Shown: positions 26,400 to 56,838 of the stretch, one piece after another
Numbering within the stretch: the stretch's first letter is position 1
Layout of the letters: each line of letters opens with the position of its first letter
Made by a program: the position numbers and the translations under genes
NCBI GenBank assembly: GCA_963701185.1
Contig: OY969569.1
Coordinates: 667,548-731,547 of the forward strand
Direction of reading: 5' to 3'
DNA from: Candidatus Gottesmanbacteria bacterium
Lineage (GTDB): Bacteria; Patescibacteriota; Microgenomatia; UBA10105; UBA927
Length of the DNA stretch: 64,000 nucleotides
Notes under the pieces: model-generated
Told to the model about the DNA's origin: nothing
What the model saw: only the letters and a program-made list of their open reading frames with translations
The model's database searches: none

Positions 26400-28169
26400 A
26401 TGATGAATACTATCATGGCGAAAAAAATTTCCATCGTTGTGCTGGGCCTTACTCCCCTCTTTTTCCTCCCCGTAACCCAAAATTTTTATGACACGAATAA
26501 GTGGATACTCCTGGGAATCGGAGGACTGCTCGTCCTGATTTTTTGGGCCATAACGCTGTTTCGGGTAAAAATGCCTCTACGAGCGGCATTTCCCTGGGGA
26601 TCTCTCGGATTCGCGGCATTGACAATCGCATCCTTCATCGGCCTTATCGCTGCTTCGACCAATAAAATCGAAGCTATTCTTTCACCGCTGGGGCCGATAA
26701 CGTTTCTTGCGCTCACTATCCTCATTCTGACCGCCTCTTCCATGACGAAACAGGACAAGGTGTACGTGAGATGGTTTCTCTACGGGATAATAGGGCTCTT
26801 GGGGCTTATCGCGCTGTACCAATTCCTTGGCATCAGGTATTTTTCTGACCCTTTGTGGACCCCGACCGGATCCGTCACCACCACAATTGTCCTGTTTTTT
26901 ATCACGCTGTCTCTCCTTATCCCCGATATCATCGCATCGTTCAAAAAACGTGAAGAGCATGGTACAACAGCATTTCTCATTATTTCTTGTATCATCATCG
27001 GAGTCGGCACAGGCATAACGCTCTTCCAATTCATTCCGAAAATACCCTCCCTTCTGCCGTTTGATGCTGGCATGATCGTGGCGTCCCAAATTTTCAAAAA
27101 TCCTACTGCTGCCGCTGTCGGTATCGGCACGGAAAACTTTGTTGCCGCCTTCACCGCGGCCAGACCTGCGAGCTTCAATACCGGACCGCTTGCCGCCGTG
27201 ACGTTTACGACGAACGCGGACTTTTTTCTCCATATCCTCACCGTCTATGGCCTTACCGGACTGGCTGCCGCATTGGTTCTTGCGGGTTCTCTTGTAACCG
27301 GAAACAAAAAAGACTGGCTTTTCTTCACTAAATGCATCTGTCTGGCAAGCTTACTGTTTATTCCGCCGACCATACCGCTTCTTGCCGTTATCGCAATCAT
27401 CCTTATCCTTGCGGAGGGAGAAAAAAATCCAAAATCGTTTGCTGTCAGGCCATCCTGGATCCGGATCCCGGCCGGCGCTCTGTTGATACTCGCGTCCTTA
27501 GCTTCGTTCTATTTTTTGGCCCGCGCATACGCGGCGGAACTATACTTTTTCCAATCACTGCAGGCGCTTGCGGCACATGACGGAACCAAAACGTATAACC
27601 AACAAATTCAGGCAATCCGGACCAATACGTTCTTAAGCCGATACCATGTTTCGTATAGCCAAACAAGTTTGGAGTTGGCCAACAGCATCGCCGGCTCTGA
27701 CAGCAAAAGCGACCAGGACCGGCAGCTGGTAGGACAACTTCTGCAACAATCCGTTAACGAAGCAAAAATTGCCGTTACGCTCAACCAACAAAACATCACT
27801 GCATGGGAAAACCTGGGTTTTACGTATCAAAATATTATTCCGGTCGCTTCGGAGGCCGCCAATTGGGCACTGACGGCCTACGGGTCTGCCATAAAATTGG
27901 ACCCGTCCAACCCCAATCTGTTCCTCAATATCGGCAGCGTCTTCATCGCCCAGAAACAGTACGATGATGCCATTGCCATGTTTATCCGGGCTATCCAGCT
28001 TAATCCGTCGTACGCTAACGCCTACTACAACCTGGCAAACGCGTACAAACTCAAAGGCGATACGGTTAATCAAGGAAAAGTCCTCACTGATACGCTGAAG
28101 CTCGTTGCTCCGGAAAGTTCGGATTATGCGAAAATCAAAAACGAACTGGATGCACTGGAAAAGAAATGA
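26400..28169 (+). CDS. O-antigen ligase (Wzy_C) family polytopic membrane protein with C-terminal TPR repeats (possible PglL/PilO-like O-oligosaccharyltransferase)
   Basis: Start at ATG 26400 (MMNTIMAKK). The 26121 start of the ORF-track ORF overlaps a pilin gene and AT-rich spacer. About 10 TM helices. NADFFLHILTVYGLTGL resembles the Wzy_C core (aHNdyLqilaElGiiG). C-terminal TPR-like repeats (AYYNLANAYKLKGD). Confidence 0.6.
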   Translation: MMNTIMAKKISIVVLGLTPLFFLPVTQNFYDTNKWILLGIGGLLVLIFWAITLFRVKMPLRAAFPWGSLGFAALTIASFIGLIAASTNKIEAILSPLGPITFLALTILILTASSMTKQDKVYVRWFLYGIIGLLGLIALYQFLGIRYFSDPLWTPTGSVTTTIVLFFITLSLLIPDIIASFKKREEHGTTAFLIISCIIIGVGTGITLFQFIPKIPSLLPFDAGMIVASQIFKNPTAAAVGIGTENFVAAFTAARPASFNTGPLAAVTFTTNADFFLHILTVYGLTGLAAALVLAGSLVTGNKKDWLFFTKCICLASLLFIPPTIPLLAVIAIILILAEGEKNPKSFAVRPSWIRIPAGALLILASLASFYFLARAYAAELYFFQSLQALAAHDGTKTYNQQIQAIRTNTFLSRYHVSYSQTSLELANSIAGSDSKSDQDRQLVGQLLQQSVNEAKIAVTLNQQNITAWENLGFTYQNIIPVASEAANWALTAYGSAIKLDPSNPNLFLNIGSVFIAQKQYDDAIAMFIRAIQLNPSYANAYYNLANAYKLKGDTVNQGKVLTDTLKLVAPESSDYAKIKNELDALEKK

Positions 28170-29743
28170 AACCGCTTGTTCTGACCGTCATCCTTTTTAT
28201 CCTGCAACTCGGATTATTTCTTTGGATTACCCTCCGGCCGTTTTCCATAAGCCCGCAAGGAAGTTCGTATTATGTCCTCCACGGACAGAGCGCGTACACG
28301 GCATATATACGTGAGTCCAAAGAAGGCGCATGGAAGGTCACGAATCCCTACACCACCCGGCCGAATCCGCCAATCTACGCGCATCTGTTTTATGTATTTT
28401 TAGGTAAAATTGCAGCGGTATTTTCGTTTGATACAATCGCCACCTCCATGGTAACCCATGTCGTTGCCGGCCTCATTCTTTTTCTTGCCACCTATTGGTG
28501 TATCGGCAAAATCCTTCCCGCAAATCTCCAAACACTTGCGGTTCTCTTCACCCTCGGATTGGAACCCGGCCCGCTAGTGTCAGAAATAAAAAATATCGCG
28601 TCACTGGCATTTGCGCGGCCCGTTATATTCAGCTTTTTCCCACAGGAAGTGGTACTGCGGCACTTCGGGCTCCCGCATCATGTTTTGGCGGAGGCACTCG
28701 GTTTATTGATACTGGGGAATGTCTTTTTATTTGTAAAAAGGGCGTCATGGCAGCGGTTGGCGGGTATCGCACTCCTTACTGTCGCCGGGACACTCATTAT
28801 GCCGGTATACAACAGTATCTTAATGCTGACAGTAGGCATTGCGTGGTTCGTATGGTCTCTTATACATGGCCACATCAAAAAAAATCTGCCGGCCTTTATC
28901 ACGATTTTTGTATGTTTTGGAGCCGCGGCACTATTTATTAAACTCCAAATGGACACGAGCTTCATGTGGAAAAATTATAGCCTGGACGAAAAACGCTGGG
29001 TGACGGATGGTGATATTGTTATCAATTACCTTTCGTCGCTCGTTCTGTACCTGCCGGCAATTGTATTCCTATGGGCGACACTGCTACGGCGCTCGTGGCA
29101 TCTGATGGTCGTACTGTTCACTACATGGATCGTAGGACCTCTTCTGTACATCCCCCTCACACATATGTCCCTCTTTCCGTTTGCCAATTTTCGGTTGGTG
29201 GACGGATATTCCTATGTTCCTGCAGGAATTCTGGCCGCCATGGGAATATCGGAAATCAGCCGTTTGAGCGGTAAAACCATCGCGAAGTTCGCCGTCATAC
29301 TCATGCTTGCCGCCTCACTGTTCCTCACGGTCAGCTATACGAGAAAAACGTTTGAAGACCAGCAGAGGATCTATACGAATGTCTATCTGTTGCGGGAGGA
29401 GTGGGATGCAATCCGCTTCCTTTCAACCATCCCGCGTCACAGTGGCGTTATGGTCATGAAATATGTCGGGGAGATTATTCCTGCGTACGACTCAGTGCGT
29501 GTTTTTCTGGGTGAAACTCCCGGCGCTCTCGACTGGCAGGAACGCTACGACATCGCCGTCCGGTTCTATTCCGGGCTCCTGACGGATAGTGAAGCACGCA
29601 CTATCCTCCGACAGGAAAATATTTCCTATGTTTATTGGGGACAGGATGAAAAAGTATTCTCAAAAACTCCGACACTGTACCCCAATGTCCTTATTCCTGT
29701 TTTCCAAAATCCCGCCGTTACTATTTTCGCGCAAAAACAATAA
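28166..29743 (+). CDS. large polytopic membrane protein, GT-C-like paralog family member
   Basis: Multi-TM N-terminal half. C-terminal ...ENISYVYWGQDEKVFSKTPTLYPNVLIPVFQNPAVTIFAQKQ motif shared with 32519..33751, 36545..38152 and 51996..54026. Confidence 0.5.
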   Translation: MKPLVLTVILFILQLGLFLWITLRPFSISPQGSSYYVLHGQSAYTAYIRESKEGAWKVTNPYTTRPNPPIYAHLFYVFLGKIAAVFSFDTIATSMVTHVVAGLILFLATYWCIGKILPANLQTLAVLFTLGLEPGPLVSEIKNIASLAFARPVIFSFFPQEVVLRHFGLPHHVLAEALGLLILGNVFLFVKRASWQRLAGIALLTVAGTLIMPVYNSILMLTVGIAWFVWSLIHGHIKKNLPAFITIFVCFGAAALFIKLQMDTSFMWKNYSLDEKRWVTDGDIVINYLSSLVLYLPAIVFLWATLLRRSWHLMVVLFTTWIVGPLLYIPLTHMSLFPFANFRLVDGYSYVPAGILAAMGISEISRLSGKTIAKFAVILMLAASLFLTVSYTRKTFEDQQRIYTNVYLLREEWDAIRFLSTIPRHSGVMVMKYVGEIIPAYDSVRVFLGETPGALDWQERYDIAVRFYSGLLTDSEARTILRQENISYVYWGQDEKVFSKTPTLYPNVLIPVFQNPAVTIFAQKQ

Positions 29744-30576
29744 GATCATCCCAGGGGTTTATCGGATTCTTCAATTTAAACCGGTCCAAAAATTTCCCGA
29801 TGGGTTGTAAAATCCCTGCTGCCCACGGGAAATAATCGGCCGCGCGGGTAAATACAAAAGATAACGGGAACGGCCGTGGTGAATCGGGGCGGATGATAAT
29901 ATTTCTGAATCCCGCCCGTTTAAAAAGTTCCCGTAAAGACTTTCTATCCCAAAATGTCACATGTTCCGGGTGATGATACCCTACCCACCATTTTCCCATC
30001 ATTTTTCGCCAAATGCTGTTATGATTCGGGGTTGTCAGGACGGCCTCACCGCCTTTATTGAGCAGTTTATATACCCGCTTCATCATGCCTAAGGGATTAC
30101 GCTCATGTTCGATGATTTCAAACGCGGTAACGACATCAAACTTCGATGTGGGCCATGTTTGAGAAACACGAAGTCCCCTTTTTTTGCAATAGGAAACTGC
30201 GTCTTTGGAAATATCTACCCCCTGCGCTCTTATCCCTACTTTTTTGGCTTCTTCCAGTAATACTCCCATGGCACAGCCGATATCAGTAATATTGGTCTGT
30301 CATTCCCGTGAGGCGGGAATTGTTATTGTTGTATTGTGAAAACTAATATCGATTCCTCACAGGCGCGGATGATAATTGAAGCGTTTTCCTAAAATATTCC
30401 CTATGCACGGGAATCTGGGCGATGTACGGCTCAAAATGCTCCAAATCTTCGTGATACAATTTTTCAATCTCTTTTTCACCGGGCATCGGCACCATCTGTA
30501 CCAATCCGCAGGTCGTACATTTTTTCAATCTATAAATAACGGAAAATCGGGTAGACCCGCACAATACGCACCTCAT
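29721..30576 (-). pseudogene. zinc-ribbon class I SAM methyltransferase interrupted by a ~70-bp hairpin-containing insertion (paralog of 31632..32522)
   Basis: 30343..30576 encodes the CxxC..CxxC zinc-ribbon plus EHFEPYI and ends in TAG. 29721..30269 encodes the MTase core. Motif I DIGCAMG sits immediately after an in-frame TGA with no upstream start. The intervening 30270-30342 contains hairpin ATTCCCG-tgagg-CGGGAAT. Confidence 0.5.
30302..30320. repeat. hairpin element ATTCCCG-N5-CGGGAAT (member of a small palindromic repeat family, cf. 45100-45161)
   Basis: 7-bp perfect inverted repeat, flanked by GTC at the 5' side as in the 45097 copy. Confidence 0.5.
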
Positions 30577-31586
30577 ATAGTCTTTTTTAACAGATAATAG
30601 GCCGCGCCCGCAAGAATAACGACATACAATACCAATCCGGCCCCCAACGCTTTCAGCATAAATCCACTCCCCTTCTCACGATAACAAAACCACAGAAACT
30701 TGCGAAGAAGAAGAATATGAAAAAGAAAAAGAACGGCGGCAGAGACGATCGTGACCATACGTACCCAGGAAAACGGCAACACAAAATACAGAAGTATCCC
30801 CATGACGATAATCCCCAGAGCTCCTACCCCCGCGGCGGCTGTCGCGGTCTCCGACATGGTGGTTGCGACTGTATCAAATTTTCGATGGGTGCCGTAGAGC
30901 TTCGTCCAGTAAAAACTGCGCCAGAAATATTTCCTGGCAACCGCAAAAAACCCTTCAAATTCATGGTGAACCCTCACATCAGGCGCGAAGATGATCGCAT
31001 AACGCTTGGCGATCCGGTACGTAAGCTCCACATCCTCCATCTGCCGGAACGCCTCGTTAAAACCTCCCAACCGGTCAAATACATCGCGGCGGATGGCGGC
31101 GTTCCTGGTGCTGAACAGGTAATAATATCCGTCGCGGTCGCGTTCGTTGGTCCAATAACTCCAGTCGCGCATGGCTTTAAATTGGGGGAAAAATGATGTG
31201 GTACGCTGGTGTTTATCCCACACGCCTGTCAGCGCAATCAAATCAGGGTCTTCACAAAATTTATTGGCAATATTGGTTAACGTATCGGGGTACACCGTCA
31301 CATCCGCATCCAAAAAAACTAATACCTCGCCCCGTGCCCGTTTCACGGCAGCATTGCGGGCTGCAGCCGGACCGCGGTTGTGTGTCAGGCGGGTAACAGT
31401 CAGCGGGAACCGCGGGCGGATGCCCTGAAGCTTCCTGACGGTCAGCTGCTCGTTTGATGCGTCATCACCGATAATCACTTCAAAGTTCTTATATGATGAC
31501 GTTGTGAGCGATCCCAGAAGCTTCCCGAGCGTTTCGCTTGCATTGTAGGCAGGGATGATAATCGAAAGATACGGTTTACCCCTCAT
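30573..31586 (-). CDS. family 2 glycosyltransferase with C-terminal TM segments
   Basis: LSIIIPAYN...IIGDDAS...DAD motifs of the GT2 (GT-A) fold. C-terminal membrane helices. Confidence 0.7.
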   Translation of the reverse strand: MRGKPYLSIIIPAYNASETLGKLLGSLTTSSYKNFEVIIGDDASNEQLTVRKLQGIRPRFPLTVTRLTHNRGPAAARNAAVKRARGEVLVFLDADVTVYPDTLTNIANKFCEDPDLIALTGVWDKHQRTTSFFPQFKAMRDWSYWTNERDRDGYYYLFSTRNAAIRRDVFDRLGGFNEAFRQMEDVELTYRIAKRYAIIFAPDVRVHHEFEGFFAVARKYFWRSFYWTKLYGTHRKFDTVATTMSETATAAAGVGALGIIVMGILLYFVLPFSWVRMVTIVSAAVLFLFHILLLRKFLWFCYREKGSGFMLKALGAGLVLYVVILAGAAYYLLKKTI

Positions 31587-31631: not shown

Positions 31632-32522
31632 TTATGCCTTAGCCGTTACGATCATAATATCAAGAGGAAGTGGAAACTGAAGATACGACAAAGGAGTGAT
31701 ACGGAATACTTTTTCGGCCCATACGCATAACCCCTTCGACCATGGGTGACCAACAACATGCATGACTCCACGGAAAAGAAAATGTATCGGGTACCAGCGC
31801 GTTTCGTCGCCCACAGAGCGGATATGATGAAATCCTGCTTTTTTCAAAAGCAACGTCATTGTCTCACGGGAAAAAAAGTACAGATGCTCCTGATGACGGT
31901 AATTACGCCAATGCTTTCCCAAAAGATGTTGCAGATACCCTCCCTCCCGCGGTGTTGAGAAAAGTATAACCCCGCCGGGTTTTATCACGCGGTGAATCTC
32001 GCGCAGGAACGCCAACGGGTCGGAAACGTGTTCGATAAGATGAAATCCTACCACGCCGTCGAAAGAATGCGACGGAAATTTCGCCCGAAATAGGTCTGTT
32101 GCGCGGGCATTGAGCCCCTGATTCTTCGCATACGCAACAGCCTCCCACGAGATATCGATGCCTATGCAGTCCAGATGTGCGCGTTTCGCCTCCTCAAGAA
32201 AAAATCCATACGATGAGCCGATTTCCAACACTTTCTTGCCGAGGAGAATCGTCCGTAAGAATGTAATTTTCCGCCTGAAATATGACAAAAGCAGTGGTTT
32301 CTCGGCCATATAGTCGTAATACCCCACGGATGACGCCGTTCGTGTTTTATCCGACGCAAAATAATTCTTGTTATACATCAGGGTAAGCTCATGATCCGTG
32401 GGCTGCGGATTAACATAGACAAGTCCGCAGCCGGCACAGCGGACAATCCGATGATGCGGCAGATTAAGATAAACCGTGTACGTGTCGTGTCCGCACAAGG
32501 GGCACACCATGTCGTTTTTCAT
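31632..32522 (-). CDS. class I SAM-dependent methyltransferase with N-terminal zinc-ribbon
   Basis: CPLCGHD...CAGCG zinc ribbon, then VLEIGSSYG (motif I) and IKPGGVILFSTP (post-II). Full-length counterpart of the disrupted gene at 29721..30576. Confidence 0.7.
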   Translation of the reverse strand: MKNDMVCPLCGHDTYTVYLNLPHHRIVRCAGCGLVYVNPQPTDHELTLMYNKNYFASDKTRTASSVGYYDYMAEKPLLLSYFRRKITFLRTILLGKKVLEIGSSYGFFLEEAKRAHLDCIGIDISWEAVAYAKNQGLNARATDLFRAKFPSHSFDGVVGFHLIEHVSDPLAFLREIHRVIKPGGVILFSTPREGGYLQHLLGKHWRNYRHQEHLYFFSRETMTLLLKKAGFHHIRSVGDETRWYPIHFLFRGVMHVVGHPWSKGLCVWAEKVFRITPLSYLQFPLPLDIMIVTAKA

Positions 32523-33751
32523 TCTTTAACCCTGTAGATCACGATACGCGGATTGTTATATACCGGTTGCAAAAATGGGTACACAGAATCAAGCGCACGA
32601 ATATGTGCCACTTCAGCCTCCTGGGGACCGAAGTACACGTACGATATTCCCGCGCCATGAATCCATCGTAGGGCAACATCCGGCTCCATAGTTCCCGCAA
32701 AAAAGGATTCCACGAGAGGTTTTTTCTCTTCATATTTCACGGTATTTGCGTGGCCGTAGTAGACCGTATTGCCGGCATACACCGGAATATAATTCCCGGT
32801 TGTTTGCATAGACAATACAACACTACTGCGGGGTGTTGTCGCTCCCAAAAAGGTCATCCCGGCGACAAAATCTTTCAGCGGGTACATCACATAACTGCCC
32901 GACGGCACGAGCGGAAGCGTTGCTACTATCTTGTGATCGACAAAATCACGTTGCCATAACCATGATGAATACATAATGCCCAAACCGACAACAATGACGA
33001 CGACTGCTATTGTTTTTGCTATAGCTTTTCCTACGTTACTTACGTCATTTAAGATACTTAGAAGATAAGCCGTCAGTATTGCCAATGGGACGTGCGGAAG
33101 CGTTTCCGCAAACCGGAGCGGATGCTGCTGCGGAATAAAATGAAATCCGATAAATATGGTAAAGAATGCAAGAATCCACGCCATTGCACTTTTAAGAGCC
33201 GTTTCTTTTTTGAAAAGTGCTACCACTAACCCGATAAGTCCCAACGGAAGTATCGGGCCGATAGCAAGAATATATTCCCACAGGTTAAAGGCAAGAGGGT
33301 TAAGGACATCAAATTCAACGAGCCGTTTCCAGGGATATATTGTGAGCATGAGGAAAAAATAAAGGACTGCCGGGATACTGATAACTCCGATAACCACCCG
33401 CGGCCAAAAAATCCGGTCAAATAGCCAAAGATACGCGCATGCCACAGCAACAACGGCCAGCCCCGGCGGATAGATGATGTACAAAAGTGACGCAAGACAT
33501 CCCAAAAAAATCCAGTTTCCCGACCGCGCAAGTGTTTTACGGCTTGACACCGCAATAATCAAAAAAATCATGAGAGCCTGACCGATAAGAATATGGGGAA
33601 TAAACGTAATCCGCTGGAGTGAATCCATGACTGAAAACCACGGCATGTACCCGCCCAATCGCCATCCGTCAAACGCCAAAACCAGTTTCGGCCATGTTGA
33701 GGCAGTCACGGCAAGTAAAAATCCGATGATCAGCCACCCTGCGGACGTCAA
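32519..33751 (-). CDS. polytopic membrane protein, GT-C-like paralog family member
   Basis: Multi-TM. C-terminal ...GISYVYFGPQEAEVAHIRALDSVYPFLQPVYNNPRIVIYRVKE motif. Confidence 0.5.
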   Translation of the reverse strand: MTSAGWLIIGFLLAVTASTWPKLVLAFDGWRLGGYMPWFSVMDSLQRITFIPHILIGQALMIFLIIAVSSRKTLARSGNWIFLGCLASLLYIIYPPGLAVVAVACAYLWLFDRIFWPRVVIGVISIPAVLYFFLMLTIYPWKRLVEFDVLNPLAFNLWEYILAIGPILPLGLIGLVVALFKKETALKSAMAWILAFFTIFIGFHFIPQQHPLRFAETLPHVPLAILTAYLLSILNDVSNVGKAIAKTIAVVVIVVGLGIMYSSWLWQRDFVDHKIVATLPLVPSGSYVMYPLKDFVAGMTFLGATTPRSSVVLSMQTTGNYIPVYAGNTVYYGHANTVKYEEKKPLVESFFAGTMEPDVALRWIHGAGISYVYFGPQEAEVAHIRALDSVYPFLQPVYNNPRIVIYRVKE

Positions 33752-33856
33752 TTTCTCAAGCGTTTCGCGGACAAATCCGCAATAAGCGCAAAAAGTGTCC
33801 CCGCGAAAACGATTCGTGCAACGTGATAAGTGTCACCCGCCGGTGCCACGGAACAG

Positions 33857-35506
33857 TCAAAAAATCCCCCACCCACCCCATAGCAAGATACACAATTTGA
33901 AACAGGGACCCCTATGCGGTTCTGAGGTATATTTTTCCTGAACCAAAGGAGTGCCCTCTATCCCCTGGCGTATCCGCGAAAGGTAAAAGTTATAGTCCGT
34001 ATAAAAATTGTGCACCAACTCAAATTGACGGTCGGGGTGCAGGTCGTTTTTACGCAGAAGCTCGTACCCCGTCGGCACGAGGGAAAACAGGACAAAAAAC
34101 GTGATCAGTGCTCCCCACACCCATTTTATTTTCATAGTTTTTTCAACAATCTCCCGCCGAATCCTGAAACGGGAGCATAATGCGCTTTGATATAGGCGGA
34201 ATTATCCGCCGTAAACGTGATAAACCTATTGCTGTCTCCCTCATAAATATACTCTATGGGGGGCTCCGTATGATACTGGGACAGCGGTGCGGGTCGACGA
34301 CTCACAAAGGATAAAAATGCGTCAAACGGCAGGCTGGAAACCGGGTACCCGTCCCGCCAAAACACCATCCTGCCTTCAAGGTCCACAACCCGCGCACTCA
34401 GTGGAATTGTCTTTATCATGATCGAAAGCTCCGTCATCTGGGGTCTATTTGTCGCCCATAATTTCGGCGCATTCACGTCTCGGGTTACCACGATCAAAAG
34501 ATACGTACATCCGGCAAGAACCAACACCAATGATGCCCACCCGCCCGCGCGTTCAAGCCAGTCAAAAAAGCTTGCCAATGCTCGAACCCGCGTAATAGGC
34601 GACAAAGACGGCAATCGGGATAAGGTATTGGCTGTGTTTCAAAGGATAAAATTTAACATATGCGATGGCACTCACAAAAAATATCCCGCTGATAAGAAGT
34701 TCAACGAGCGCCTTTTTCTTATCCCCCTCCCGAAATGGCGTGACAATCCGATACGCTCCGAATAGTACTCCCAATATCCAGATTGCGTGGTTTACCAGTA
34801 ACCCTAGCGTTATTCCGTTTCCGCCGTAAAAATCGGCATTCGGGTAAAAAAATAAACTGGGAATCATAGGGTAATTGACCGAGGTTTTATAAACTTCAAA
34901 AAGCGGTGTAAGCGAATACCACACAACGCCGAAGTTGCCGGATATCCCCGCCCCGAGGAAAAAGAAAAACCAGGGAACGATAACGGGCAAGACAAACACA
35001 CGGAGTTTCTTTGAAAACGCGGCAATGATGGTTCCGACCAGGACAAACGGCAGGGTTTTTACTAAAACAAAAAGAGAAAGGCCGTACGCCAACCCCGAGA
35101 CCGCCCACAGCCAGTTTTTTTTCTCCCTAATCGCCCTAATCTCCCCTATTACCCCTACCAGCGCCAGCAGTGTCGCGAGGTTATCCGGCCGGATTTCCAG
35201 AAATTTATCGTATGGCATCGGCAAAAAAGCCAGAATGACGGCCGGCAGAAGCGCCCACTTCCACCCTCTTGTTATTCCCCATAAGTAACTTAAGGCACCT
35301 AAAATACTTAAGAAAATAACAAACGAAAGCATACGCCCCGCCGTAAATACCTGCACGCTCACCCCATATATCCAAAAGATCGGCGCAAATACCCACATGA
35401 ATCCCGGGGTAAAGTACGAGAAAAAATCCGTATACATGTGCTCTCCCCGTGCCACCTGTGCCGTCCAGTGCATGTAGGAAAATTCATCAACGTCAAAAAA
35501 CCGCAT
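33857..35506 (-). pseudogene. membrane protein (GT-C-like) apparently broken into three overlapping ORFs by frameshifts
   Basis: ORFs 34562..35506 (multi-TM), 34132..34614 and 33857..34135 lie head-to-tail on the same strand. They overlap by 53 nt and 4 nt in different frames. The middle piece carries IEYIYEGDSNRFITF resembling the family C-terminal motif. Confidence 0.35.
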
Positions 35507-36074
35507 ACTACTTACCCGCCAACTCCACCACAGGAGGTAGACCAGTAGTCGCTAAAAGAAGTTTTCTTACGACACGCATAGATCCCATTGTAGCAAATCA
35601 CGGAAAGAGTCTGCGAAATATACCAATGACACCTTCACGAAAGGTAAAATAGGATGTTTTTCCGAGCATAAATGTACCCTGATTTTTCATGATCTCTCCC
35701 GAATACAAAAGCCGTGCGATGCGCCGCCAAACAATGTGTGATGTGCTGAAGGTCTTTGCAAATCCGTCACAGTATCCGCCTCCCGAACGTGCAATATCCG
35801 TAAAGATCCGTAATGTCACGGAGGCCTCCATGTTACTAAATGGCCCAAGGACAAAGAGACCAGTAAGAAGTCCATAGAGGCTTGCCCACCAGATATACTC
35901 AGTAATACCCCAGGAGCCCGCGCTGACGCTGCTACACCCGCCCGATACCCACAAAAATCCGAATCATCCAGACAATAGCTGCTTCCTGACGGGTCATGCG
36001 GAATGCGACAGCAAGAGCCGCAAGAAAAAGGAAAAATGACAAAAGTGCAGCCGATAGTATACGTATATCCATAG

Positions 36075-36542
36075 TTATCGCGTAAGTGTCCGATGAAATA
36101 CCCATCTGTATATTTCCATAATCCTCCAGAGTACTTTTCCCCGCCGGGTAAGCGTGAGCATACCTTCACGACGCGTCACCATGGCGCTTTGGATAAGATC
36201 ATCCAGACGTTCACGTATAAGCCCCTTGTTTGTAAACAGTGCGGCTAACTCATTCAATGTCTGATGTTTTTTTCTTTGAAATGATTGCAAAATAATCGAT
36301 GAAGGAATTTCAGTTCCCAGAGAGATCGCAAGATAAAACAAGATGACGGTAGCGGATAACAGAATATAAAGGAAACCGGACGACCATGGGAGGGCAATAC
36401 TGCCCATCCTGCCAAACCCGTACAACAGCACGGCGCCCGCAAGATACACTCCTATCGATCGTAACCGGATAATTCTGTGTGCGACGATATGCAGGATGAG
36501 TGAAAACGAAAAACACAAAAGAACGATAAAAAATGATGCCAT
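36075..36542 (-). CDS. small membrane protein (4 TM) of unknown function
   Basis: 155-aa ORF with hydrophobic N-terminal two-thirds. Located between two large membrane-protein genes. Confidence 0.35.
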   Translation of the reverse strand: MASFFIVLLCFSFSLILHIVAHRIIRLRSIGVYLAGAVLLYGFGRMGSIALPWSSGFLYILLSATVILFYLAISLGTEIPSSIILQSFQRKKHQTLNELAALFTNKGLIRERLDDLIQSAMVTRREGMLTLTRRGKVLWRIMEIYRWVFHRTLTR

Positions 36543-38152: not shown

Positions 38153-38349
38153 TATATGGAGATGATTGCGGGGGTATGGTGTATGTATTGCTTTTGGTGA
38201 TGTACGAGCAAGTTGTTCCGCAGCCTCTTCTCTACGGCCGTTGTGTATATACGTGTCGATAAACTCCTGGCGGATAGTTTCTTTGGAAACGGGTTGGGTA
38301 CGGGTATTCATATACCTCGAAAGGAAAACGGACAGTGACCGGTCTCCTG

Positions 38350-38649
38350 TCACGGAACGTGGGTGAAAAAAATAAGGTTCACGCTCCACACCAACAGGGC
38401 GCTGATGATGATATCGCGTACGGTCCATATACGAAGACGGCGTTTCAACCACACCAAAAATATAGCCAGAACGCCCGAAGCAAGTGAGAAGAGTGATACC
38501 ACGGTAAAAAAATACGAGATGAGAAAATAAAAGACTATAAAAGGACAAAGAAAGACTGCCGTTGCGATCACGAAAAAACCCGCATGTAATAAAAGGATTC
38601 TTATGACTGTTTTATCCATACAATAACTCCTCTCACTACCTGATAACAC
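38350..38649 (-). CDS. small membrane protein (GtrA-like size and topology)
   Basis: 99 aa, three to four hydrophobic helices. The position next to the large membrane proteins is reminiscent of GtrA-family partners, but there is no diagnostic motif. Confidence 0.3.
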   Translation of the reverse strand: MLSGSERSYCMDKTVIRILLLHAGFFVIATAVFLCPFIVFYFLISYFFTVVSLFSLASGVLAIFLVWLKRRLRIWTVRDIIISALLVWSVNLIFFTHVP

Positions 38650-38689
38650 AACCAGTACGATACCACGATTAGAAACGGCACGGCAGGCA

Positions 38690-39768: not shown

Positions 39769-39899
39769 ATGGGTAGTGATATCTTCAGGGCAGTAGAGTA
39801 GTAATTTGCAGTATAGCAGTTGATATATATGTGAGTGATAAGTTATAAAATGAAATAAGGATAAAGAAGGAAAAAAGAAGAAAAGATAAAAGAAAGAAT

Positions 39900-45099: not shown

Positions 45100-45161
45100 A
45101 TTCCCGCGCAGGCGGGAATCGGTATTTGTTTTGAACGCAGATCCCCGATCAAGTCGGGGAT
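45100..45161. repeat. two tandem hairpins ATTCCCGC-gcag-GCGGGAAT and ATCCCCGA-tcaag-TCGGGGAT
   Basis: Two perfect 8-bp inverted repeats 21 nt apart, in the intergenic region just upstream of the 45172 start. Same family as the 30302-30320 element. Confidence 0.5.
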
Positions 45162-45171
45162 GACAAGAAAA

Positions 45172-47442
45172 ATGAAACATATTGAAAAATATATCAGTAT
45201 CGCAATGCTCCTTTTTGCCGTCGGATGTAACCTGTGGTTGTTCCGCTCCGAACCCACGGCAAAAGTGGACCCGAATGACAATACATTCCAGTTTGCTCTG
45301 GTCTACCGGACAAACCAAATATGGGATTTTGCACAGCAAAAGTGTTCATACAATCCCGTATGTTTTTTCTCCTATCTTGCCGATCATTGGGTCCCGAATT
45401 GGAACGAAGGGTACAATCTCCCCTTCTATTATTCTCATATTCCCCAAATTGTCATTGTAGGCACGTGGCGGTTACTATCTTCGACTATTTCGCTTTTTGC
45501 GTATTACCATCTCGTCATCTATCTCCTCCTCTCTGTCTTTCCGATTTCGGTATTTTTGGCGTTGCGGGTCGCCGGATTTTCATGGCTTACCGCCGGTTTT
45601 GGAGCGATTCTTGCATCCCAAATCTCGACAGACGGGCTATACGGCCTTGACCCGTCGTCGTTTTTGTGGCGTGGCTACGGCCTCTCGAGCCAACTGTTTG
45701 CCATGATCTGGCTTCCGATTGCTCTCGCATACTGCTATAAGGCGCTCACAAACAAACGGGCAATCATTCCCGCAATTATTTTCGTACTTTTTACCACGGC
45801 GGGGCATCTTGGTATCGGTATGATGACATTTTTGGCCCTTATTCCCCTGGCTCTGGCCGCGCCCATCCTGGCATTTTTTCAAAAACAATCAGTACAAAAC
45901 ATATTCGGCCCTCTGAAAAAAAACGCAGTGACCATCGGTATTATCGGGGCAGCCGCAATCGGGTTCTTAAGCTACTGGATCCTGCCGGCAATGTCCCTCG
46001 ACCGGTTCCACAACTTTTCCTTCTGGGATCCGGTGTGGAAATTTAATTCCTACGGCGTCAAAGAAGTAATCATACGATTATTCAACGGCGCGCTGTTTGA
46101 TTTTGGCAGACTGCCGGTCTTTACTGGGTTGGTTTTTATTGGTTTATTCATTATTCATGATTCATCATTCACTATTCTCTTTATTTTCTTTCTCCTCCTC
46201 TACGTCGGCAGAACAACATGGGGAAATTTGTTTGACATCATCCCCGGGATGAAGGAATTCCATTTATCGCGTTTTATCGTCGGCGTACATATCGCAGGGC
46301 TCTTTTTAGCACCGATCGGACTTGCATGGATTATTGAGAAGATTAAAAAATTTATTGGATTATTTGCTTATTTGCTTATTGGATTATTGGTAGTATTCGT
46401 TTATCCCCAAACCGTCCGCTATGCCGCATACAACGATACGCTTATTGCGAAAGCCAACGACAACTATGCCAAACAGGCAACGGGAGCAAATAGTTTGATT
46501 GCGGCTCTGCAGGAACTGGAACAAAAAGCCCCCGGCCGGGTATTTTCAGGGCGCGGCGGCGGCTGGGGAAAAGATTTTAAGATCGCCGAAACTACGATGA
46601 CGATGTATCTGGGGAACTTTGGACTACCCACGGTTCTCTGGATGCCGGAGACGTGGTCACCAAATGCCGATACCGAACAGTATTTCAGGGAAGATAAGGA
46701 AGAAGATTATGACCTGTATAATATCCGCTACGTGGCAACACCGGTAGGTATAGCGAAAGAAAATATCCAGCCGTTCTGGAAAGTAATACAAGAAAATCCT
46801 TCATGGAAGATCTATGAGGTACCGACATCCGGTTACTTTACTGCAGGTGTACGGCCTGCGGTGGTTGCATCCGACAAATACTCCCGCGCCAATGTCGTCC
46901 GGCTCTGGATCCAATCCAGCGACCCCAAAAACGGCCTCTATCCGGAACTCTCGTTCGACACAAAAAAATACCCGGTCAATGTCGGACTGCCGAACTTCAA
47001 AATGATTGATGAAGTAACGTTTCAGGTGCCGGACGGCTCCACCCACAACCTTTTTTCCGAACCACCAAAGTATCTCTCCCTTATCACCCCTAGCTCCCTT
47101 ATCTCCCTTAGTTCCCAGACTAATGATACGGATATGGTTTTTTCTACTCATGTGAAGGTAGCGGAGGGCTGCACCGAATGTATAGTTATATTAAAACAAA
47201 CCTACCACCCCAACTGGCAGGTCACGGTTGACGGAAAATCAGTAACCCCGATCATCACGTTCCCGTTTTTCATCGGGATTCCGGTAAGTGCAGGAAACCA
47301 CACTATTGTGGCCTCATATAAACCATCGAACGTAAAAGTTATATTGTTATCTATCTCCCTGATTACCCTTATTTCCTTTACTCTTTGGTTTCTCGCCCGA
47401 AAACTGGGGATTGACATGAGCACACAAAATACTGCAAACTAA
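45172..47442 (+). CDS. large polytopic membrane protein (YfhO/GT-C-like) with extracytoplasmic C-terminal beta-rich domain
   Basis: Start MKHIEKYISIAMLLFAVG at 45172. The ORF-track start 45160 lies inside the hairpin. More than 12 TM helices, then a ~330-aa soluble region and a C-terminal TM. Confidence 0.5.
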   Translation: MKHIEKYISIAMLLFAVGCNLWLFRSEPTAKVDPNDNTFQFALVYRTNQIWDFAQQKCSYNPVCFFSYLADHWVPNWNEGYNLPFYYSHIPQIVIVGTWRLLSSTISLFAYYHLVIYLLLSVFPISVFLALRVAGFSWLTAGFGAILASQISTDGLYGLDPSSFLWRGYGLSSQLFAMIWLPIALAYCYKALTNKRAIIPAIIFVLFTTAGHLGIGMMTFLALIPLALAAPILAFFQKQSVQNIFGPLKKNAVTIGIIGAAAIGFLSYWILPAMSLDRFHNFSFWDPVWKFNSYGVKEVIIRLFNGALFDFGRLPVFTGLVFIGLFIIHDSSFTILFIFFLLLYVGRTTWGNLFDIIPGMKEFHLSRFIVGVHIAGLFLAPIGLAWIIEKIKKFIGLFAYLLIGLLVVFVYPQTVRYAAYNDTLIAKANDNYAKQATGANSLIAALQELEQKAPGRVFSGRGGGWGKDFKIAETTMTMYLGNFGLPTVLWMPETWSPNADTEQYFREDKEEDYDLYNIRYVATPVGIAKENIQPFWKVIQENPSWKIYEVPTSGYFTAGVRPAVVASDKYSRANVVRLWIQSSDPKNGLYPELSFDTKKYPVNVGLPNFKMIDEVTFQVPDGSTHNLFSEPPKYLSLITPSSLISLSSQTNDTDMVFSTHVKVAEGCTECIVILKQTYHPNWQVTVDGKSVTPIITFPFFIGIPVSAGNHTIVASYKPSNVKVILLSISLITLISFTLWFLARKLGIDMSTQNTAN

Positions 47443-51973: not shown

Positions 51974-51995
51974 TTATTGTATACTATCCATACAA

Positions 51996-54026
51996 TTATT
52001 GCAACTGGTAAATAACGGTTTCTCCCGACGTAAATACCGCCTTCCCCAATTCTTTAAACTTCGTTTCCTGCATGTTGGTAAATTTCTGCCGTTCCAGCGT
52101 TCCCACAAAAATATATCGGACGTTGTATTTGGCAAGGATTTGCTGTGTTTGGACACTATCCGGCGACTCGTATATCAGCCGCACCTCCTCTTTCCGCGGC
52201 GCCACAACATCGTAACTGCCGCGCCAGAGCCATTCATGCACCGACCAGCCGACAATCGTCGGAAACCCGGTAAACGCGCTCACCTGATTGTAATCGGTAT
52301 AACTGTCCCCGTCCGCCTCGACTATAACTGGTAATCCAGTTGTAGTCGCCCCGCGAAGCTTTAGCGAAGTGGGGCTACCTATTTGTGTATTGAGCCATTG
52401 AATCGCAGCCCAATTATCCGGATATTGAGCCTTAATCCACCCGGCCCCGTTAATCCCCTCATAGACCTTCAGGCTGTTGAAATACGACCGGACACTGAAA
52501 ATGGGGTAAATGGACACAAGAAATAATTGCGGCAGAAGCAGAAGCAAAAAGATTTTATTGCGGAAAAATTTGACAATCGCGTATCCTGCGACGATCGAGA
52601 ACAGGATAAATGCGTCATATCCTAGTTTGAACATGGTATTACTTCTGAAGTGCATGGGATAAATGTCTTTAAAGTAGAAAAATTCGGGGAAGATGATAAG
52701 AGCAAGAGAAAAGAAGAAGAAAACGGTAAGAAGCAGATTTTTTTTCTTCGAAAACAAGAGCCAGGCGCCGCAATAGATGAAAAATCCCCACAGAAGCCAC
52801 ATCATCCACAGCGGGCTGTGCTGACACTTCTCCACTCCCTCAAACAAAATCGGTCCGATTTTCGTATCGGCAAGCCCCGAGGGAGGACAATTGACGGCAA
52901 GACCCGTGACAAATGATTTGAAATACAGGATAAACGGCAGACTGCACAGGATTGTTGTAATAATGGTGATGCCGCCCACAATTGCCGTCTTTTCCCAATT
53001 TATTATTTTAAATTGCGCATTGTGCATTACCAAAATTATCAGGAATAACCCGAGGTATATCGGCCCGTCGAGCGCATTGGTCATCAGAAGTACACTGCAT
53101 AAGAATCCATAAAAGATAAGAAAAAAATAATGGATTTTTTTGTCCCCCCACATTTTTATCAGCAGCGCTATAGCAAGCAATACAAACGGGATCGACAGTA
53201 CGTGCCCGTGGACATCCGATACCACAAACGAGTAGCTCGGAAATTCATGGATCGTATACGGGATAAAGCGTGTGGCATTGGCATACCAGTAGCGGGCAAA
53301 ATCCATCTTCCCCAAAAGCGTCCAGAACGGCACAACCTGGTCCCCATCATACCCTTTGGTAAACGCATAAATCGTTTGCATGTTTCCCGCGAGGGTCACA
53401 AGAAATGCGGTGAGTATCCCCCCGGAAATTTTCTTGGTCAGTTGTCTTCCGATTGTAAAACTCATGGTGAAACAGAAGGCAAAAATCGCCGCCAGCATGA
53501 GATTAAACGTGTAGGTGAGATCAATGCCGGAAAGGCGGGTTAAGACTGCCATGACGGTATGTCCGAAGTAGTAGTAATTGATGGAACTCCCGGCATACCA
53601 CATGTCGGGGGCCGGAAAAAAGCGGCTATCCAAAATGGATTTGGTAAACCCGAAGTCCATAAACTTTTCGAGGTTATGGATACTCGGTTCATGCGCCTTC
53701 ACCCAACTCCAAAACAGAAGACACAAGAAGAAAAAGATTTCTTCCAGAATTATCCCCTTATCTCCCCGATTTCCCTTATCTCCCCTATTGCCTACAACTC
53801 CCCCAATAAAAACAATAAGTAAAGCAAAAAAAATAGACAATTGCGTAAACGGAATAATGTGGAGAACGCCTCCCAAATACACAAGATACGTCACCGCCGC
53901 CATCCCTACGGCTTTGGAAAAAGAATACGATAGTCCCAATCTGCGGGTTAACGGATATGCCGCCGCACCGACTAAAAAAAGCATCCCCCACCATTGGAAA
54001 ACAATAAGAAAGTCCGACATCGGCAT
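51996..54026 (-). CDS. large polytopic membrane protein, GT-C-like paralog family member
   Basis: 676 aa with more than 12 TM helices. C-terminal ...YNVRYIFVGTLERQKF...GETVIYQLQ motif. Confidence 0.55.
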   Translation of the reverse strand: MPMSDFLIVFQWWGMLFLVGAAAYPLTRRLGLSYSFSKAVGMAAVTYLVYLGGVLHIIPFTQLSIFFALLIVFIGGVVGNRGDKGNRGDKGIILEEIFFFLCLLFWSWVKAHEPSIHNLEKFMDFGFTKSILDSRFFPAPDMWYAGSSINYYYFGHTVMAVLTRLSGIDLTYTFNLMLAAIFAFCFTMSFTIGRQLTKKISGGILTAFLVTLAGNMQTIYAFTKGYDGDQVVPFWTLLGKMDFARYWYANATRFIPYTIHEFPSYSFVVSDVHGHVLSIPFVLLAIALLIKMWGDKKIHYFFLIFYGFLCSVLLMTNALDGPIYLGLFLIILVMHNAQFKIINWEKTAIVGGITIITTILCSLPFILYFKSFVTGLAVNCPPSGLADTKIGPILFEGVEKCQHSPLWMMWLLWGFFIYCGAWLLFSKKKNLLLTVFFFFSLALIIFPEFFYFKDIYPMHFRSNTMFKLGYDAFILFSIVAGYAIVKFFRNKIFLLLLLPQLFLVSIYPIFSVRSYFNSLKVYEGINGAGWIKAQYPDNWAAIQWLNTQIGSPTSLKLRGATTTGLPVIVEADGDSYTDYNQVSAFTGFPTIVGWSVHEWLWRGSYDVVAPRKEEVRLIYESPDSVQTQQILAKYNVRYIFVGTLERQKFTNMQETKFKELGKAVFTSGETVIYQLQ

Positions 54027-54058: not shown

Positions 54059-55246
54059 ATGAAAGTTGCCGTTATCGGGGGTGGATTCACGGGACTTAGC
54101 GCAGCCTACGAACTCACCAAACGCGGCCATGCCGTCACCCTTTTTGAAGCCGGTCCCGTCTTGGGCGGGCTGGCGCACGGATTCAGGCAACCGCATTGGC
54201 AATGGAACCTGGAATATTCCTACCATCATTGGTTTACCAATGACCGGGCGGCATTGAAATTAATCGAAGAGTTAGGGCTAAAAAATAAAGTAATTATCAA
54301 ACGTCCGGTAACGGCAAATCTCTACAACGGAAAAACTTATCAACTCGACTCTCCATTATCTCTTCTCCGATTTCCCCTATTACCCTTATTTGATAAGGCG
54401 CGTACCGCGGCGCTCTTAGGATTTCTAAAAATCACACCGTTTTGGAAACCATTGGAACAAATTACCGCTGAACAGCTTTTAACCTCAATAGGAGGAAAAC
54501 GTGCATATCAGGTGCTTTGGGAACCTCTCTTGGTTGGCAAATTCGGCAGCTTCGCGCCAAAAATTCAGGCGGCCTGGTTTTGGGCAAGAATTAAAAAACG
54601 GACATCAAGCCTTATGTACATGGAGGGCGGATTCAAAACGCTTATCGATGCACTGGAACGCGCTATAATAAAACAAGGCGGGAAAATATATACAAATAAG
54701 AAAATCTCTTCAATGAAAAATATAAGCGGTTTTGATACAACGCTTTTTACCGGTCCCACACCGCACACTCCCATCCCCCACCTATGGGCACAGACACTTG
54801 TTGTAGAAACAAAAGAACCGATTCTCGGGGATATCTATTGGCTCAATATCACCGACCGGTCTTACCCGTTCCTTGCCGCTGTCGCACACACCAATTTCAT
54901 GGATAAAAAATACTACGGCGGCCGCCACCTGACCTATTTCGGCAACTACCTGCCGGAAGGCCACAAATATTTATCAATGACGAAAGAAAAATTATTAAAA
55001 GAGTTTTTGCCATTTATTAAAAAAATTGGAAATTGGAAATTGGAAATTGTGAATTCTTTTATGTTCACCGCACCCCACGCCCAGCCGGTCCACGAACTCC
55101 GGTATTCAGCGCGTGCGCCGAAGATGGAAACAGCAATCCCCAACGTCTATCTTGCCAATATGGACAGTATTGTCCCCTGGGACCGCGGAACAAATTACGC
55201 CATTGAACTGGGCCAAAAAGCCGCGCAAAAAATCATGGAGCAATGA
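54059..55246 (+). CDS. FAD/NAD(P)-binding oxidoreductase (amine oxidase / HemY-CrtI-like)
   Basis: N-terminal Rossmann MKVAVIGGGFTGLSAAYELTKRGHAVTLFEAGPVLGG (GxGxxG ... E ... GG). Confidence 0.6.
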   Translation: MKVAVIGGGFTGLSAAYELTKRGHAVTLFEAGPVLGGLAHGFRQPHWQWNLEYSYHHWFTNDRAALKLIEELGLKNKVIIKRPVTANLYNGKTYQLDSPLSLLRFPLLPLFDKARTAALLGFLKITPFWKPLEQITAEQLLTSIGGKRAYQVLWEPLLVGKFGSFAPKIQAAWFWARIKKRTSSLMYMEGGFKTLIDALERAIIKQGGKIYTNKKISSMKNISGFDTTLFTGPTPHTPIPHLWAQTLVVETKEPILGDIYWLNITDRSYPFLAAVAHTNFMDKKYYGGRHLTYFGNYLPEGHKYLSMTKEKLLKEFLPFIKKIGNWKLEIVNSFMFTAPHAQPVHELRYSARAPKMETAIPNVYLANMDSIVPWDRGTNYAIELGQKAAQKIMEQ

Positions 55247-56838
55247 AAAAAATACTTATTCTCATCATTCTCTCCGGAGCAGTCTTTCGCTTTACGGCGG
55301 TCAACTGGGACTCCTTCGGCGCGTTTCATCCGGATGAACGGAATATTTCCTGGGCGGTAACACGGATTCGGTTTTTTACCCAAATGAATCCGGGGTTTTT
55401 TGCCTATGGGGGTCTCCCGATTTATCTCTATCGCGCATTGGGTGAGAGAGTCGTGGCTATTACCCATAATCCTCTGTGGCTCACCGACTGGGGATATATT
55501 GCGGTCATAGGACGGTACGTCTCGGCAACATTGTCGACGTGTAGCATTTTCCTTATCTATCTTGTGGGTTCGTTATATTTCTCCTCTGCGGCCGGAGTTC
55601 TGGCGGCCGCATTCCTTGCTTTTTCTCCGTGGGCTATACGGGAAGCACATTTTCAAACAACGGAAACCATGCTCGTGTTTTTTATACTTCTCCTCCTGAT
55701 TCTCGCAAAAAAAATAACGACGAAGCGCGCCCTGGCGCTTGGTTTTGTTTGGGGTCTGGCTATGGCCGCCAAAACTACAAGCGCTCTTTTCGGAATTATT
55801 CCCTTCGTGGCAATCTGGCTTCCTCATTTTCCTAAAAAATTTCCGAGAAAAATTTTGTATACGTACTTCCTGTTGGGTTTCGCCGCTATTATCTTTTACA
55901 TATTCTCCCCATATACCATCCTGGATTTTACGCATTTCCGGCAGTCCATGACCTATGAATCAGGAGTCGCCCTGGGGCGTTTTACGGTACCGTACACGCT
56001 TCAATTTTTACACACCGCCCCGTACCTGTATCAACTGCAAACAATGCTCTGGCAGGCGGGACCTCTCCTTATCCCGGGAATATTCGGTCTTATTGGAGTA
56101 TTGATCACGGCGCTCGTCAGAAAAAAATCATTATTTTTTATATTTTTGGTATTCCCCTTTCTCTATTTTGGCTGGGTTGGCTCATGGTTTGCCAAATTCA
56201 ACCGGTATAACGTGCCGTTTTTGCCATTTGTGACTCTCGCCGCAGCATGGCTCTGTGTTGTATGTATAAAACATTTTCGTCTTGCCGGTCTTGCTTTCAC
56301 CGCTCTCTTCCTTGGCTCCACTCTTGTATGGGGACTGGCCAATTGGACGGTGTATCTACGGCCCCAAACACGCATGAATGCAACCGAATGGATGCTTACT
56401 CATATTCCCGCCGGCGCCCGCATCTATACCGAACACTGGAATGACGGTTTACCAGTAGATGTCCCTCATGCAGTTCCGTATCAACGGGAACTATTGATGA
56501 TCTATGATGAGGATAATGCTGACAAAAAAATCTACTATGCGGACAAACTGGTGGCGGGCGATTTCATCATCCTCTCAACGCGCCGCATGTGGGCCACCAT
56601 GCCGCGGTTGGGTGAAAAATATCCGCTGACGAAATTGTTTTACCGGCGTCTGTTGGATGGATCATTAGGATACAAAGAAGTGGCAACATTTACGTCCTAT
56701 CCTCATCTATTCGGCGTGCAGATAAACGACGATTCTGCGGAAGAATCCATCCAGGTCTTTGACCACCCGACGGTACGGATTTTCCAAAACACCGGACGTT
56801 TTACCCGCGAACAATTCTTCACATTGCTCACGCCATAA
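55243..56838 (+). CDS. GT39/ArnT-like (GT-C) polytopic membrane glycosyltransferase-like protein
   Basis: HPDERN acidic motif in the first extracytoplasmic loop, more than 11 TM helices and a C-terminal soluble domain ending ...FDHPTVRIFQNTGRF. Confidence 0.55.
   Translation: MKKILILIILSGAVFRFTAVNWDSFGAFHPDERNISWAVTRIRFFTQMNPGFFAYGGLPIYLYRALGERVVAITHNPLWLTDWGYIAVIGRYVSATLSTCSIFLIYLVGSLYFSSAAGVLAAAFLAFSPWAIREAHFQTTETMLVFFILLLLILAKKITTKRALALGFVWGLAMAAKTTSALFGIIPFVAIWLPHFPKKFPRKILYTYFLLGFAAIIFYIFSPYTILDFTHFRQSMTYESGVALGRFTVPYTLQFLHTAPYLYQLQTMLWQAGPLLIPGIFGLIGVLITALVRKKSLFFIFLVFPFLYFGWVGSWFAKFNRYNVPFLPFVTLAAAWLCVVCIKHFRLAGLAFTALFLGSTLVWGLANWTVYLRPQTRMNATEWMLTHIPAGARIYTEHWNDGLPVDVPHAVPYQRELLMIYDEDNADKKIYYADKLVAGDFIILSTRRMWATMPRLGEKYPLTKLFYRRLLDGSLGYKEVATFTSYPHLFGVQINDDSAEESIQVFDHPTVRIFQNTGRFTREQFFTLLTP

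Follow-up and report, generated by a model that had tools for sequence, protein, structure and literature searches.

Enzymes of the GT-C_A type of glycosyltransferase (GT) have a polytopic core of 7–13 transmembrane (TM) helices, and their first extracytoplasmic loop contains an acidic residue that is conserved; an Asp in this loop is normally catalytic in GT-C enzymes. Little is understood about the surfaces of bacteria of the Candidate Phyla Radiation (CPR), or Patescibacteria, which live attached to the cells of a host. In the closest described type of gene arrangement, that of the three-component systems, a GT2 enzyme makes a polyprenyl-phosphate sugar, which is then used by GT-C enzymes outside the membrane (PMC11127046). 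The stretch of DNA analyzed here, referred to as the window, comprises 64,000 nt of the genome of a Gottesmanbacteria (CPR/Patescibacteria) member that is represented by one contig of 995,214 nt. Its large open reading frames (ORFs) at 26–57 kb are lettered A to J. They likely belong to a large envelope-glycosylation locus with several unrelated GT-C-fold families, in which B, C and E represent a single uncurated family as paralogs that diverged long ago.

The core of this family consists of B (28166–29743, plus strand; intact, 525 aa), C (32519–34135, minus strand; 539 aa when repaired, with an initial ORF at 32519–33751) and E (36545–38152, minus strand; intact, 535 aa). In an all-vs-all BLASTP comparison, these three are the only proteins with significant similarity to one another, which extends over their full length with E values between 6e-12 and 9e-13 at 22–28% identity, and a hidden Markov model (HMM) of the family recovers B, the name-giving member of a B clade, with 9.5e-153 and E with 2.9e-127. 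Neither these proteins nor D have a Pfam match (E≤0.1) or an NCBIfam model, ten sampled distant family members contain no Pfam domain either, and the 46 close homologs of B, which stem from metagenome-assembled genomes (MAGs) of Gottesmanbacteria/Patescibacteria, are all annotated as hypothetical. A family profile search against 1.84 billion representatives of clusters defined at 50% identity yielded 5,511 clusters at E≤1e-3, 1,073 of them at E≤1e-30, mostly with a length of 500–600 aa.

The fold of the family could be assigned with the aid of an AlphaFold2 model of B (pLDDT 90.7, pTM 0.90). A Foldseek comparison of this model with the PDB gave 26 matches at E≤1e-3, all of which are GT-C enzymes, led by AglB and followed by STT3, DPY19, AftA, PglB and ArnT. 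Family members consist of ~13 TM helices and, C-terminal to these, an extracytoplasmic α/β domain that measures 125 aa and belongs to the STT3/AglB/DPY19 type. In B, this soluble domain (aa 400–525, encoded at 29363–29740, plus strand) carries the motif ISYVYWG...YPNVL...VTIFAQ; modelled alone (pLDDT 88.8), it matched the C-terminal domains of DPY19 (7zlh, 3.7e-4), AglB-S2 (3vu0, 7.4e-4), STT3 (TMq 0.67–0.72) and AftA. Across 154 diverse members, G80 and H171 (B numbering) are invariant, while R343 and W321 are found in 151 and 144 sequences, respectively. The Asp of the first external loop (EL1), as part of a D-Y-x-x-Y-h-x-x-I-R-Q-G motif, occurs in 123 of the 154, including C and E. B, C and E thus represent a sizeable new GT-C_A family that lacks a Pfam or NCBIfam model and is a sister of the DUF2298/YYY family. 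The original prediction of GT-C-like proteins was right: the model of B matches GT-C enzymes, J and F match PMT_2/PMT, and I is a DUF2298 protein.

That prediction had further proposed that B, C, E, I and, more distantly, J and a fragment at 34132–34614 all end with the same soluble domain. An HMM built from the last 125 aa of the B/C/E family was used to search every window ORF with a length of 50 aa or more, 594 in total. Besides B (8e-59), C (2e-36) and E (8e-30), the sole other ORF to match was I (51996–54026, minus strand), a DUF2298/YYY membrane protein (PF10060 2.2e-90, TIGR03662 1.4e-135), with an E value of 4e-4, or 5e-3 when window sequences were excluded from the model. The match of I is collinear up to its extreme C-terminus, and its homologous module (~51999–52727) covers the last TM helices together with the C-terminal domain. 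In agreement with this, hhalign aligned the B/C/E family with a 20-sequence DUF2298 alignment over 206 columns (Prob 94.2%, E 1.1e-7), so that B 319–525 corresponds to I 434–676, and the full family HMM hits I with 2e-6 in collinear pieces along its whole length. J (55243–56838, plus strand), an intact PMT_2/GT39-type GT-C enzyme (PF13231 3.7e-9), scored at noise level with the C-terminal HMM (E=28) and gave no C-terminal match to B/C/E with hhalign, which detected a weak TM-core match between the two families (Prob 49%, E 1.7e-4). The ending of J, AEES.QVFDHPTV.IF, is instead a signature of its own GT39-type family, whose 293 homologs are named GT39 or ArnT-like and in which D496, E500, E501, H508 and P509 are invariant. 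Hence, the motif that had been noticed is a true signature, but only of B, C, E and, distantly, I; its columns I486, Y488, G492, E495, Y505 and L509 are conserved to 80–87% among the 154 family members. The fragment 34132–34614, which is part of D, likewise gave noise (E=23), and a profile of the D family does not align with that of B/C/E (hhalign Prob 1.7%). A, F, G and H showed no significant C-terminal match to the B/C/E profile either. On sequence grounds, J, D and F are best regarded as other GT-C-type families without demonstrable C-terminal homology to B/C/E. The HMM searches that had been suggested as a check returned PMT_2 for J and PMT for F, while YfhO and DUF2142 were negative for all flagged genes.

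These results bear on the idea that all listed genes form a single paralog family that expanded recently and turns over by rapid birth-and-death, some of its members being in decay. The many polytopic proteins of the locus, its several split ORFs and the C-terminal motif common to B, C, E and weakly I are in its favor. Only the latter four are linked via the C-terminal domain, though, with J, D, F, G, H and A lacking a significant match, and the duplications that gave rise to B, C and E must be old, because these proteins are only 22–28% identical and each has orthologs in other Gottesmanbacteria/Patescibacteria. Among the related loci, B-type genes are found in 14, C-type genes in four, an E-type gene in one and a fourth type, X, in four. 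A distant MAG (L014) harbors B-, C-, E- and X-type copies together, all four types are represented among 146 fetched representatives from the profile search, and orthologs of the E type are found at 41–45% identity. As judged from these sequences, B, C and E are old, conserved lineages. Moreover, the split genes exhibit dN/dS values as low as those of intact genes (see below). Rapid birth-and-death within a single family is thus largely refuted and appears very remote as an explanation of the locus.

The preferred reading, i.e. an envelope-glycosylation locus with several GT-C families, is in line with the remaining gene content, which includes two GT2 enzymes, two S-adenosylmethionine (SAM)-dependent methyltransferases, a DegT aminotransferase, a PMT_2 protein, a polytopic protein bearing an NPCBM domain, a YfhO-like protein and, by our own reading, a GNAT-like acetyltransferase. 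The first GT2 enzyme (30573–31586, minus strand; PF00535 3.5e-30) possesses C-terminal TM helices, and its gene adjoins B and C also in L002 (GCA_040960175.1), a related syntenic contig with intact orthologs that served as comparison standard for the broken genes, and in other loci. It is a candidate polyprenyl-phosphate sugar synthase that would supply the GT-C enzymes. The second GT2 enzyme (40821–41507, plus strand; 228 aa, PF00535 3.5e-16) is another candidate lipid-sugar synthase. By analogy, the neighboring GT2 enzymes may load a sugar onto polyprenyl phosphate, and the aminotransferase, acetyltransferase and methyltransferases could tailor this sugar. The lipid-linked sugar would then be flipped across the membrane, and each GT-C enzyme would transfer it to an acceptor outside the membrane. 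Conceivably, catalysis in C and E involves their Asp in the first loop, while the invariant His171 together with Arg343 may engage the phosphate and the C-terminal domain the acceptor.

Nearby genes encode candidate acceptors in the form of pilins and of a giant, collagen-like surface protein rich in Thr. An unbroken ORF at 9817–22047 (plus strand) encodes a protein of 4,076 aa and unusual architecture, with two N-terminal MerR/HTH-type DNA-binding domains, a Pro-rich linker, one TM helix and collagen-like G-X-T repeats. These repeats occupy ~8 kb of DNA (~10.9–18.9 kb; PF01391 6.6e-242) in tandem units of 45, 90 and 225 nt and account for the GC content of 0.60–0.66 and the strong AT skew at 10–18 kb. 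Collagen-like ORFs are also located upstream of B in two of the related loci (L006 and L010). A role of the 4,076-aa protein as GT-C acceptor is speculation. Directly after this gene follows an ORF for a 664-aa protein (22098–24092, plus strand) with a Peptidase_S74 domain (2.3e-15), an intramolecular chaperone of the endosialidase/tail-fiber type. Three consecutive type IV pilin-like genes (24465–26224, minus strand) with the N_methyl motif, one of which specifies a Gly/Pro/Thr-rich C-terminal part, lie immediately upstream of A and B, an arrangement that is kept in L002. Taken further, the B/C/E and DUF2298 families might be CPR-wide STT3/DPY19-like protein glycosyltransferases that decorate extracellular Thr-rich collagen-like fibers or pili with lipid-linked sugars, with the B clade acting as a re-wired or non-catalytic subunit coupled to A. 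We regard this extended proposal as decidedly improbable; if true, it would describe a previously unrecognized bacterial protein-glycosylation system.

Several points weigh against a glycosylation function as outlined above. By sequence profile alone, no relatives of the family were found in the PDB, and TM-scores of ~0.5–0.57 for the model of B support membership in the GT-C superfamily only, not in any particular subfamily. No flippase gene was identified in the locus, and the sugar-transferase function of B/C/E is a predicted one. In addition, the B clade is devoid of the usual catalytic first-loop Asp, so that at least B may work differently. This residue is missing in 26 of the 154 representatives, which carry a five-residue deletion at the site and are here equated with the B orthogroup. 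In 24 of these 26, compared with seven of the other 128, a clade-specific Glu133 is present in an LEPGP motif. The conserved upstream partner of B is A (26400–28169, plus strand), a polytopic membrane protein that ends in TPR repeats and for which Pfam returns TPR matches only. The start of B overlaps the stop of A in an ATGA at 28166–28169, the A-B adjacency is kept in eight related loci, and A was called as a 589-aa protein on an identical contig of the independent Logan assembly. The missing Asp, Glu133 and the tight coupling of the two genes could mean that proteins of the B clade are not conventional transferases, but non-catalytic or re-wired partners of A. However, the Asp-less clade keeps H171, E275 and R343, B is under purifying selection (dN/dS 0.16), and Glu133 may simply stand in for the Asp. 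We consider such a non-catalytic or re-wired role of the B clade unlikely.

The original prediction had also described two family-like genes as split into overlapping ORFs, one at 33857–35506 in three pieces and one at 38690–39768 in two. Comparison with intact orthologs confirmed that the reading frames are broken in the assembled sequence; the layout, by contrast, had to be revised. Orthologs in L002 measure 582 aa for A, 525 aa for B, 263 and 296 aa for two methyltransferases, 336 aa for GT2, 538 aa for C and 479 aa for D, and the syntenic cluster further carries genes for a 162-aa protein and a 407-aa F-like protein. The ORF 33857–34135 is not a piece of D but the N-terminus of C, as it matches positions 10–92 of the family HMM (E 5.6e-22), which means that C itself is split. 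The remainder of C covers positions 81–100 and 102–127, on two small ORFs in other frames, and 127–540, on the main ORF. The intact 538-aa ortholog aligns to 34126–32522 (80% identity over 538 aa in tblastn), and a DNA alignment to it located three 1-nt deletions at ~33912, ~33839 and ~33769. These deletions span 145 nt and sum to 3 nt, and an in-frame TGA (33857–33859) lies between the first two.

D proper extends from 34132 to 35579 (minus strand; initial ORFs 34132–34614 and 34562–35506) and belongs to a Pfam-less polytopic family with an FDVDEF motif after TM1. It shows an extra T at ~34585 and a second shift near 35547, and the intact 479-aa ortholog aligns in two frames. F (38634–39774, minus strand; initial ORFs 38690–39475 and 39409–39768) is a PMT-like gene (PF02366 3.1e-6 on 39409–39768) that occupies three frames, with frameshifts near 39430 and 38730. 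Moreover, it is truncated at the 5′ end and lacks ~58 N-terminal residues, including TM1 and the first, catalytic loop: orthologs of 407–446 aa align from ~residue 47–59 on. None of these is close, the best identity being 31–39%.

Other genes of the region are disrupted as well. The methyltransferase gene at 29721–30576 (minus strand) contains, relative to its intact 263-aa counterpart, an extra segment of 64 nt (~30310–30375), which is not a multiple of 3. Imperfect 19-nt inverted repeats (30302–30320 and 30396–30414, 79% complementary) flank this segment, which could be a small insertion element or hairpin. The DegT/DnrJ-type aminotransferase gene (41504–42578, plus strand) is split by one extra C at 42019/42020; orthologs of 369–374 aa align in frames 2 and 3, and once a single C is removed, the ORF is continuous over 357 aa and contains the FSFYPTKNLGALGDGG motif. 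Finally, a small membrane-protein gene (38213–38649, minus strand) upstream of E is a frameshifted paralog remnant that is fused in frame with the extended ORF of E. Accordingly, E sits within a longer ORF reaching to 38548, of which the extension is read-through of this upstream gene remnant. A paralog of the remnant lies downstream of E (36075–36542, minus strand) and encodes a small 155-aa protein with three TM helices and a helical C-terminal tail. L002 has one 162-aa copy of this small gene and no E, and E together with the 155-aa gene therefore looks like an insertion or duplication into the cluster.

In total, at least ten disruptions were found, all within 29.7–42.6 kb, affecting C, D, F, the methyltransferase, the small membrane gene and DegT. 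Whether they amount to decay is another matter. Compared with the intact L002 orthologs, dN/dS is 0.10/0.04 for C and 0.13–0.14 for D, with 0.16 for the intact B and 0.13 for the intact A. C and D are 86% and 80% similar to their L002 orthologs versus 75% for B and 68% for A, and the window and L002 copies are equally distant from the outgroup L006. The low dN/dS of the split genes, matching that of their intact neighbors, implies that the breaks are either very recent or consensus errors. What had been described as decaying members are thus genes with disrupted reading frames, as seen against intact orthologs, with no relaxed selection in C and D.

According to one of these two explanations, the organism has intact genes, and the frameshifts of one base in C, D, F, DegT and the small gene arose as consensus errors when a strain-variable region was assembled from long metagenomic reads. 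All 995,214 nt of the genome form one contig, and its relatives L006 and L007 are MFD MAGs, from a project based on Nanopore-only assemblies with one round of Medaka polishing (PMC12313526). This origin, established for the project of the relatives, may or may not apply to the genome at hand. Each of the small events is an indel of 1 nt, in several cases within a short run of G or C, and the three deletions in C, which together make 3 nt, occur in a stretch of 145 nt. Furthermore, relaxation is evident neither from dN/dS nor from relative rates, and the NCBI/ENA contig is the only recorded source of the frameshifted fragments, with none on record from the independent Logan assembly. On the other hand, a generally high error rate is excluded by the long unbroken ORFs outside 29.7–42.6 kb, including the 12.2-kb ORF 9817–22047 and many of 1.5–2.3 kb, and by a Logan contig that agrees with A and B at every position (100% identity across 4,458 nt). 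The breaks are confined to 29.7–42.6 kb, the 64-nt segment and the 5′ truncation of F are not of the basecalling type, and a look-up of C and DegT in repaired form yielded no match in the sequence collection, whose coverage there is patchy. Consensus error thus has a chance close to, if slightly below, even.

The alternative is that the breaks are real and very recent, i.e. that this strain has only lately lost one glycan-modification pathway, made up of C, D, F, one methyltransferase and DegT, and retains functional B, E, I and J. In favor of such a loss, the at least ten disruptions are concentrated in 13 kb, in genes with linked functions, with the flanking 50 kb free of obvious ORF breaks; two events, the 64-nt segment and the truncation of F, are structural, and F has no close ortholog. 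Yet, five indels in C and D without excess amino-acid change are hard to square with neutral decay, and three deletions in 145 nt of one gene are improbable as independent events (p ~0.02 by a rough estimate). Overall, recent loss is a serious possibility that falls somewhat short of an even chance. For the 1-nt indels taken by themselves, real and recent events are about equally likely as consensus errors, whereas F and the methyltransferase gene that contains the extra 64 nt are probably genuine pseudogenes. More generally, when frameshifts cluster in a MAG that consists of one contig, read support is needed before they are taken as gene decay.

Two further large genes had not been listed in the original prediction. 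G (43201–45087, plus strand) combines a Pfam-less TM part with a C-terminal NPCBM carbohydrate-binding domain (2e-32) and is reminiscent of a GT-C plus carbohydrate-binding module (CBM) architecture. H (45160–47442, plus strand) displays a C-terminal YfhO match just below threshold (28.3 vs a cutoff of 28.5 bits). Within I, a short tandem duplication, GNRGDKGNRGDKG, is found at 53751–53792 (minus strand), in a loop that is variable among orthologs. Between I and J, a gene at 54059–55246 (plus strand), the stop of which overlaps the start of J, encodes a 395-aa FAD-dependent oxidoreductase resembling amine oxidases that may be a sugar-modifying partner. Downstream of J, the region 57565–60044 (plus strand) codes for a DUF4434 protein that contains Pro-Thr linkers and, at its C-terminus, a dockerin/FG-GAP-like module, and next for a protein of 366 aa in which long PT-rich repeats occur; both are putative further surface proteins.

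Taken together, the initial observation of related GT-C-like proteins is partly confirmed, while neither a single family nor its rapid turnover or decay is established. The new findings are modest and concern a GT-C family that is uncurated, is tied to DUF2298 and has a C-terminal domain resembling those of STT3 and DPY19; one of its subclades has a rearranged active-site loop without the usual Asp. Still, a GT-C family of thousands of clusters without a Pfam or NCBIfam model constitutes an annotation gap. Defining it would name many "hypothetical proteins" and point toward candidate enzymes for the modification of surface proteins or glycans.

Among known systems, the three-component systems (GtrA/GtrB/Gtr*, GT136; PMC11127046) follow the same logic in that a gene for a GT2 polyprenyl-phosphate sugar synthase resides beside GT-C transferases, and G provides one candidate GT-C protein with a carbohydrate-binding module (NPCBM). 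In contrast to them, the present locus has no recognized flippase and no evident O-antigen context, and many GT-C genes of different families are gathered at one site. PMT_2/ArnT-like enzymes of GT39/GT83 (PF13231, PF02366), to which J and F belong, have the GT-C superfamily in common with B/C/E, and the weak TM-core alignment with the J family places the invariant PH of B/C/E on the invariant AHF of the latter. B, C, E and also D lack PF13231 and PF02366 matches, however, C-terminal homology is absent, and J has a C-terminal signature of its own.

Structurally, DPY19 (GT98) and mycobacterial AftA (GT85) rank among the top matches for both the whole of B and its C-terminal domain (7zlh, 1e-7 and 3.7e-4; 8if8, 4e-7 and 6.5e-3, respectively), but a relationship to B/C/E at the sequence level is not apparent. 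The best full-length structural matches of B are STT3/AglB/PglB (GT66, PF02516), represented by 3wak (6e-9), 6ezn_F, 6s7t and 6gxc with TMq values of 0.5–0.57. Sequence identity to these enzymes is 10–13%, PF02516 does not match the family, its C-terminal domain is much smaller, and a regular-expression search for the WWDYG motif that defines oligosaccharyltransferases found it in none of the 154 members. Nevertheless, the layout is the same, with ~13 TM helices and a C-terminal extracytoplasmic domain, C and E have an Asp in the first loop, and the C-terminal domain of B resembles the globular domain of AglB-S2 (3vu0, TMq 0.69) as well as the luminal domain of STT3. The nearest relatives by sequence are the DUF2298/YYY proteins (PF10060, TIGR03662) with I as a member, which, like B/C/E, are uncharacterized GT-C-like proteins common in Patescibacteria. 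B, C and E differ from them in being ~150 aa shorter, in having no PF10060 or TIGR03662 match at E≤0.1 and in carrying RHFGLPHH in place of the YYY/FPSYSFVVSDVHGH motifs. Both families are homologous in their last TM helices and C-terminal soluble domain, and share an Arg (R343 / HFRSNT), a strand of the form I/V-x-Y-I/V-x-x-G..E and a terminal V-I-Y-x-V.

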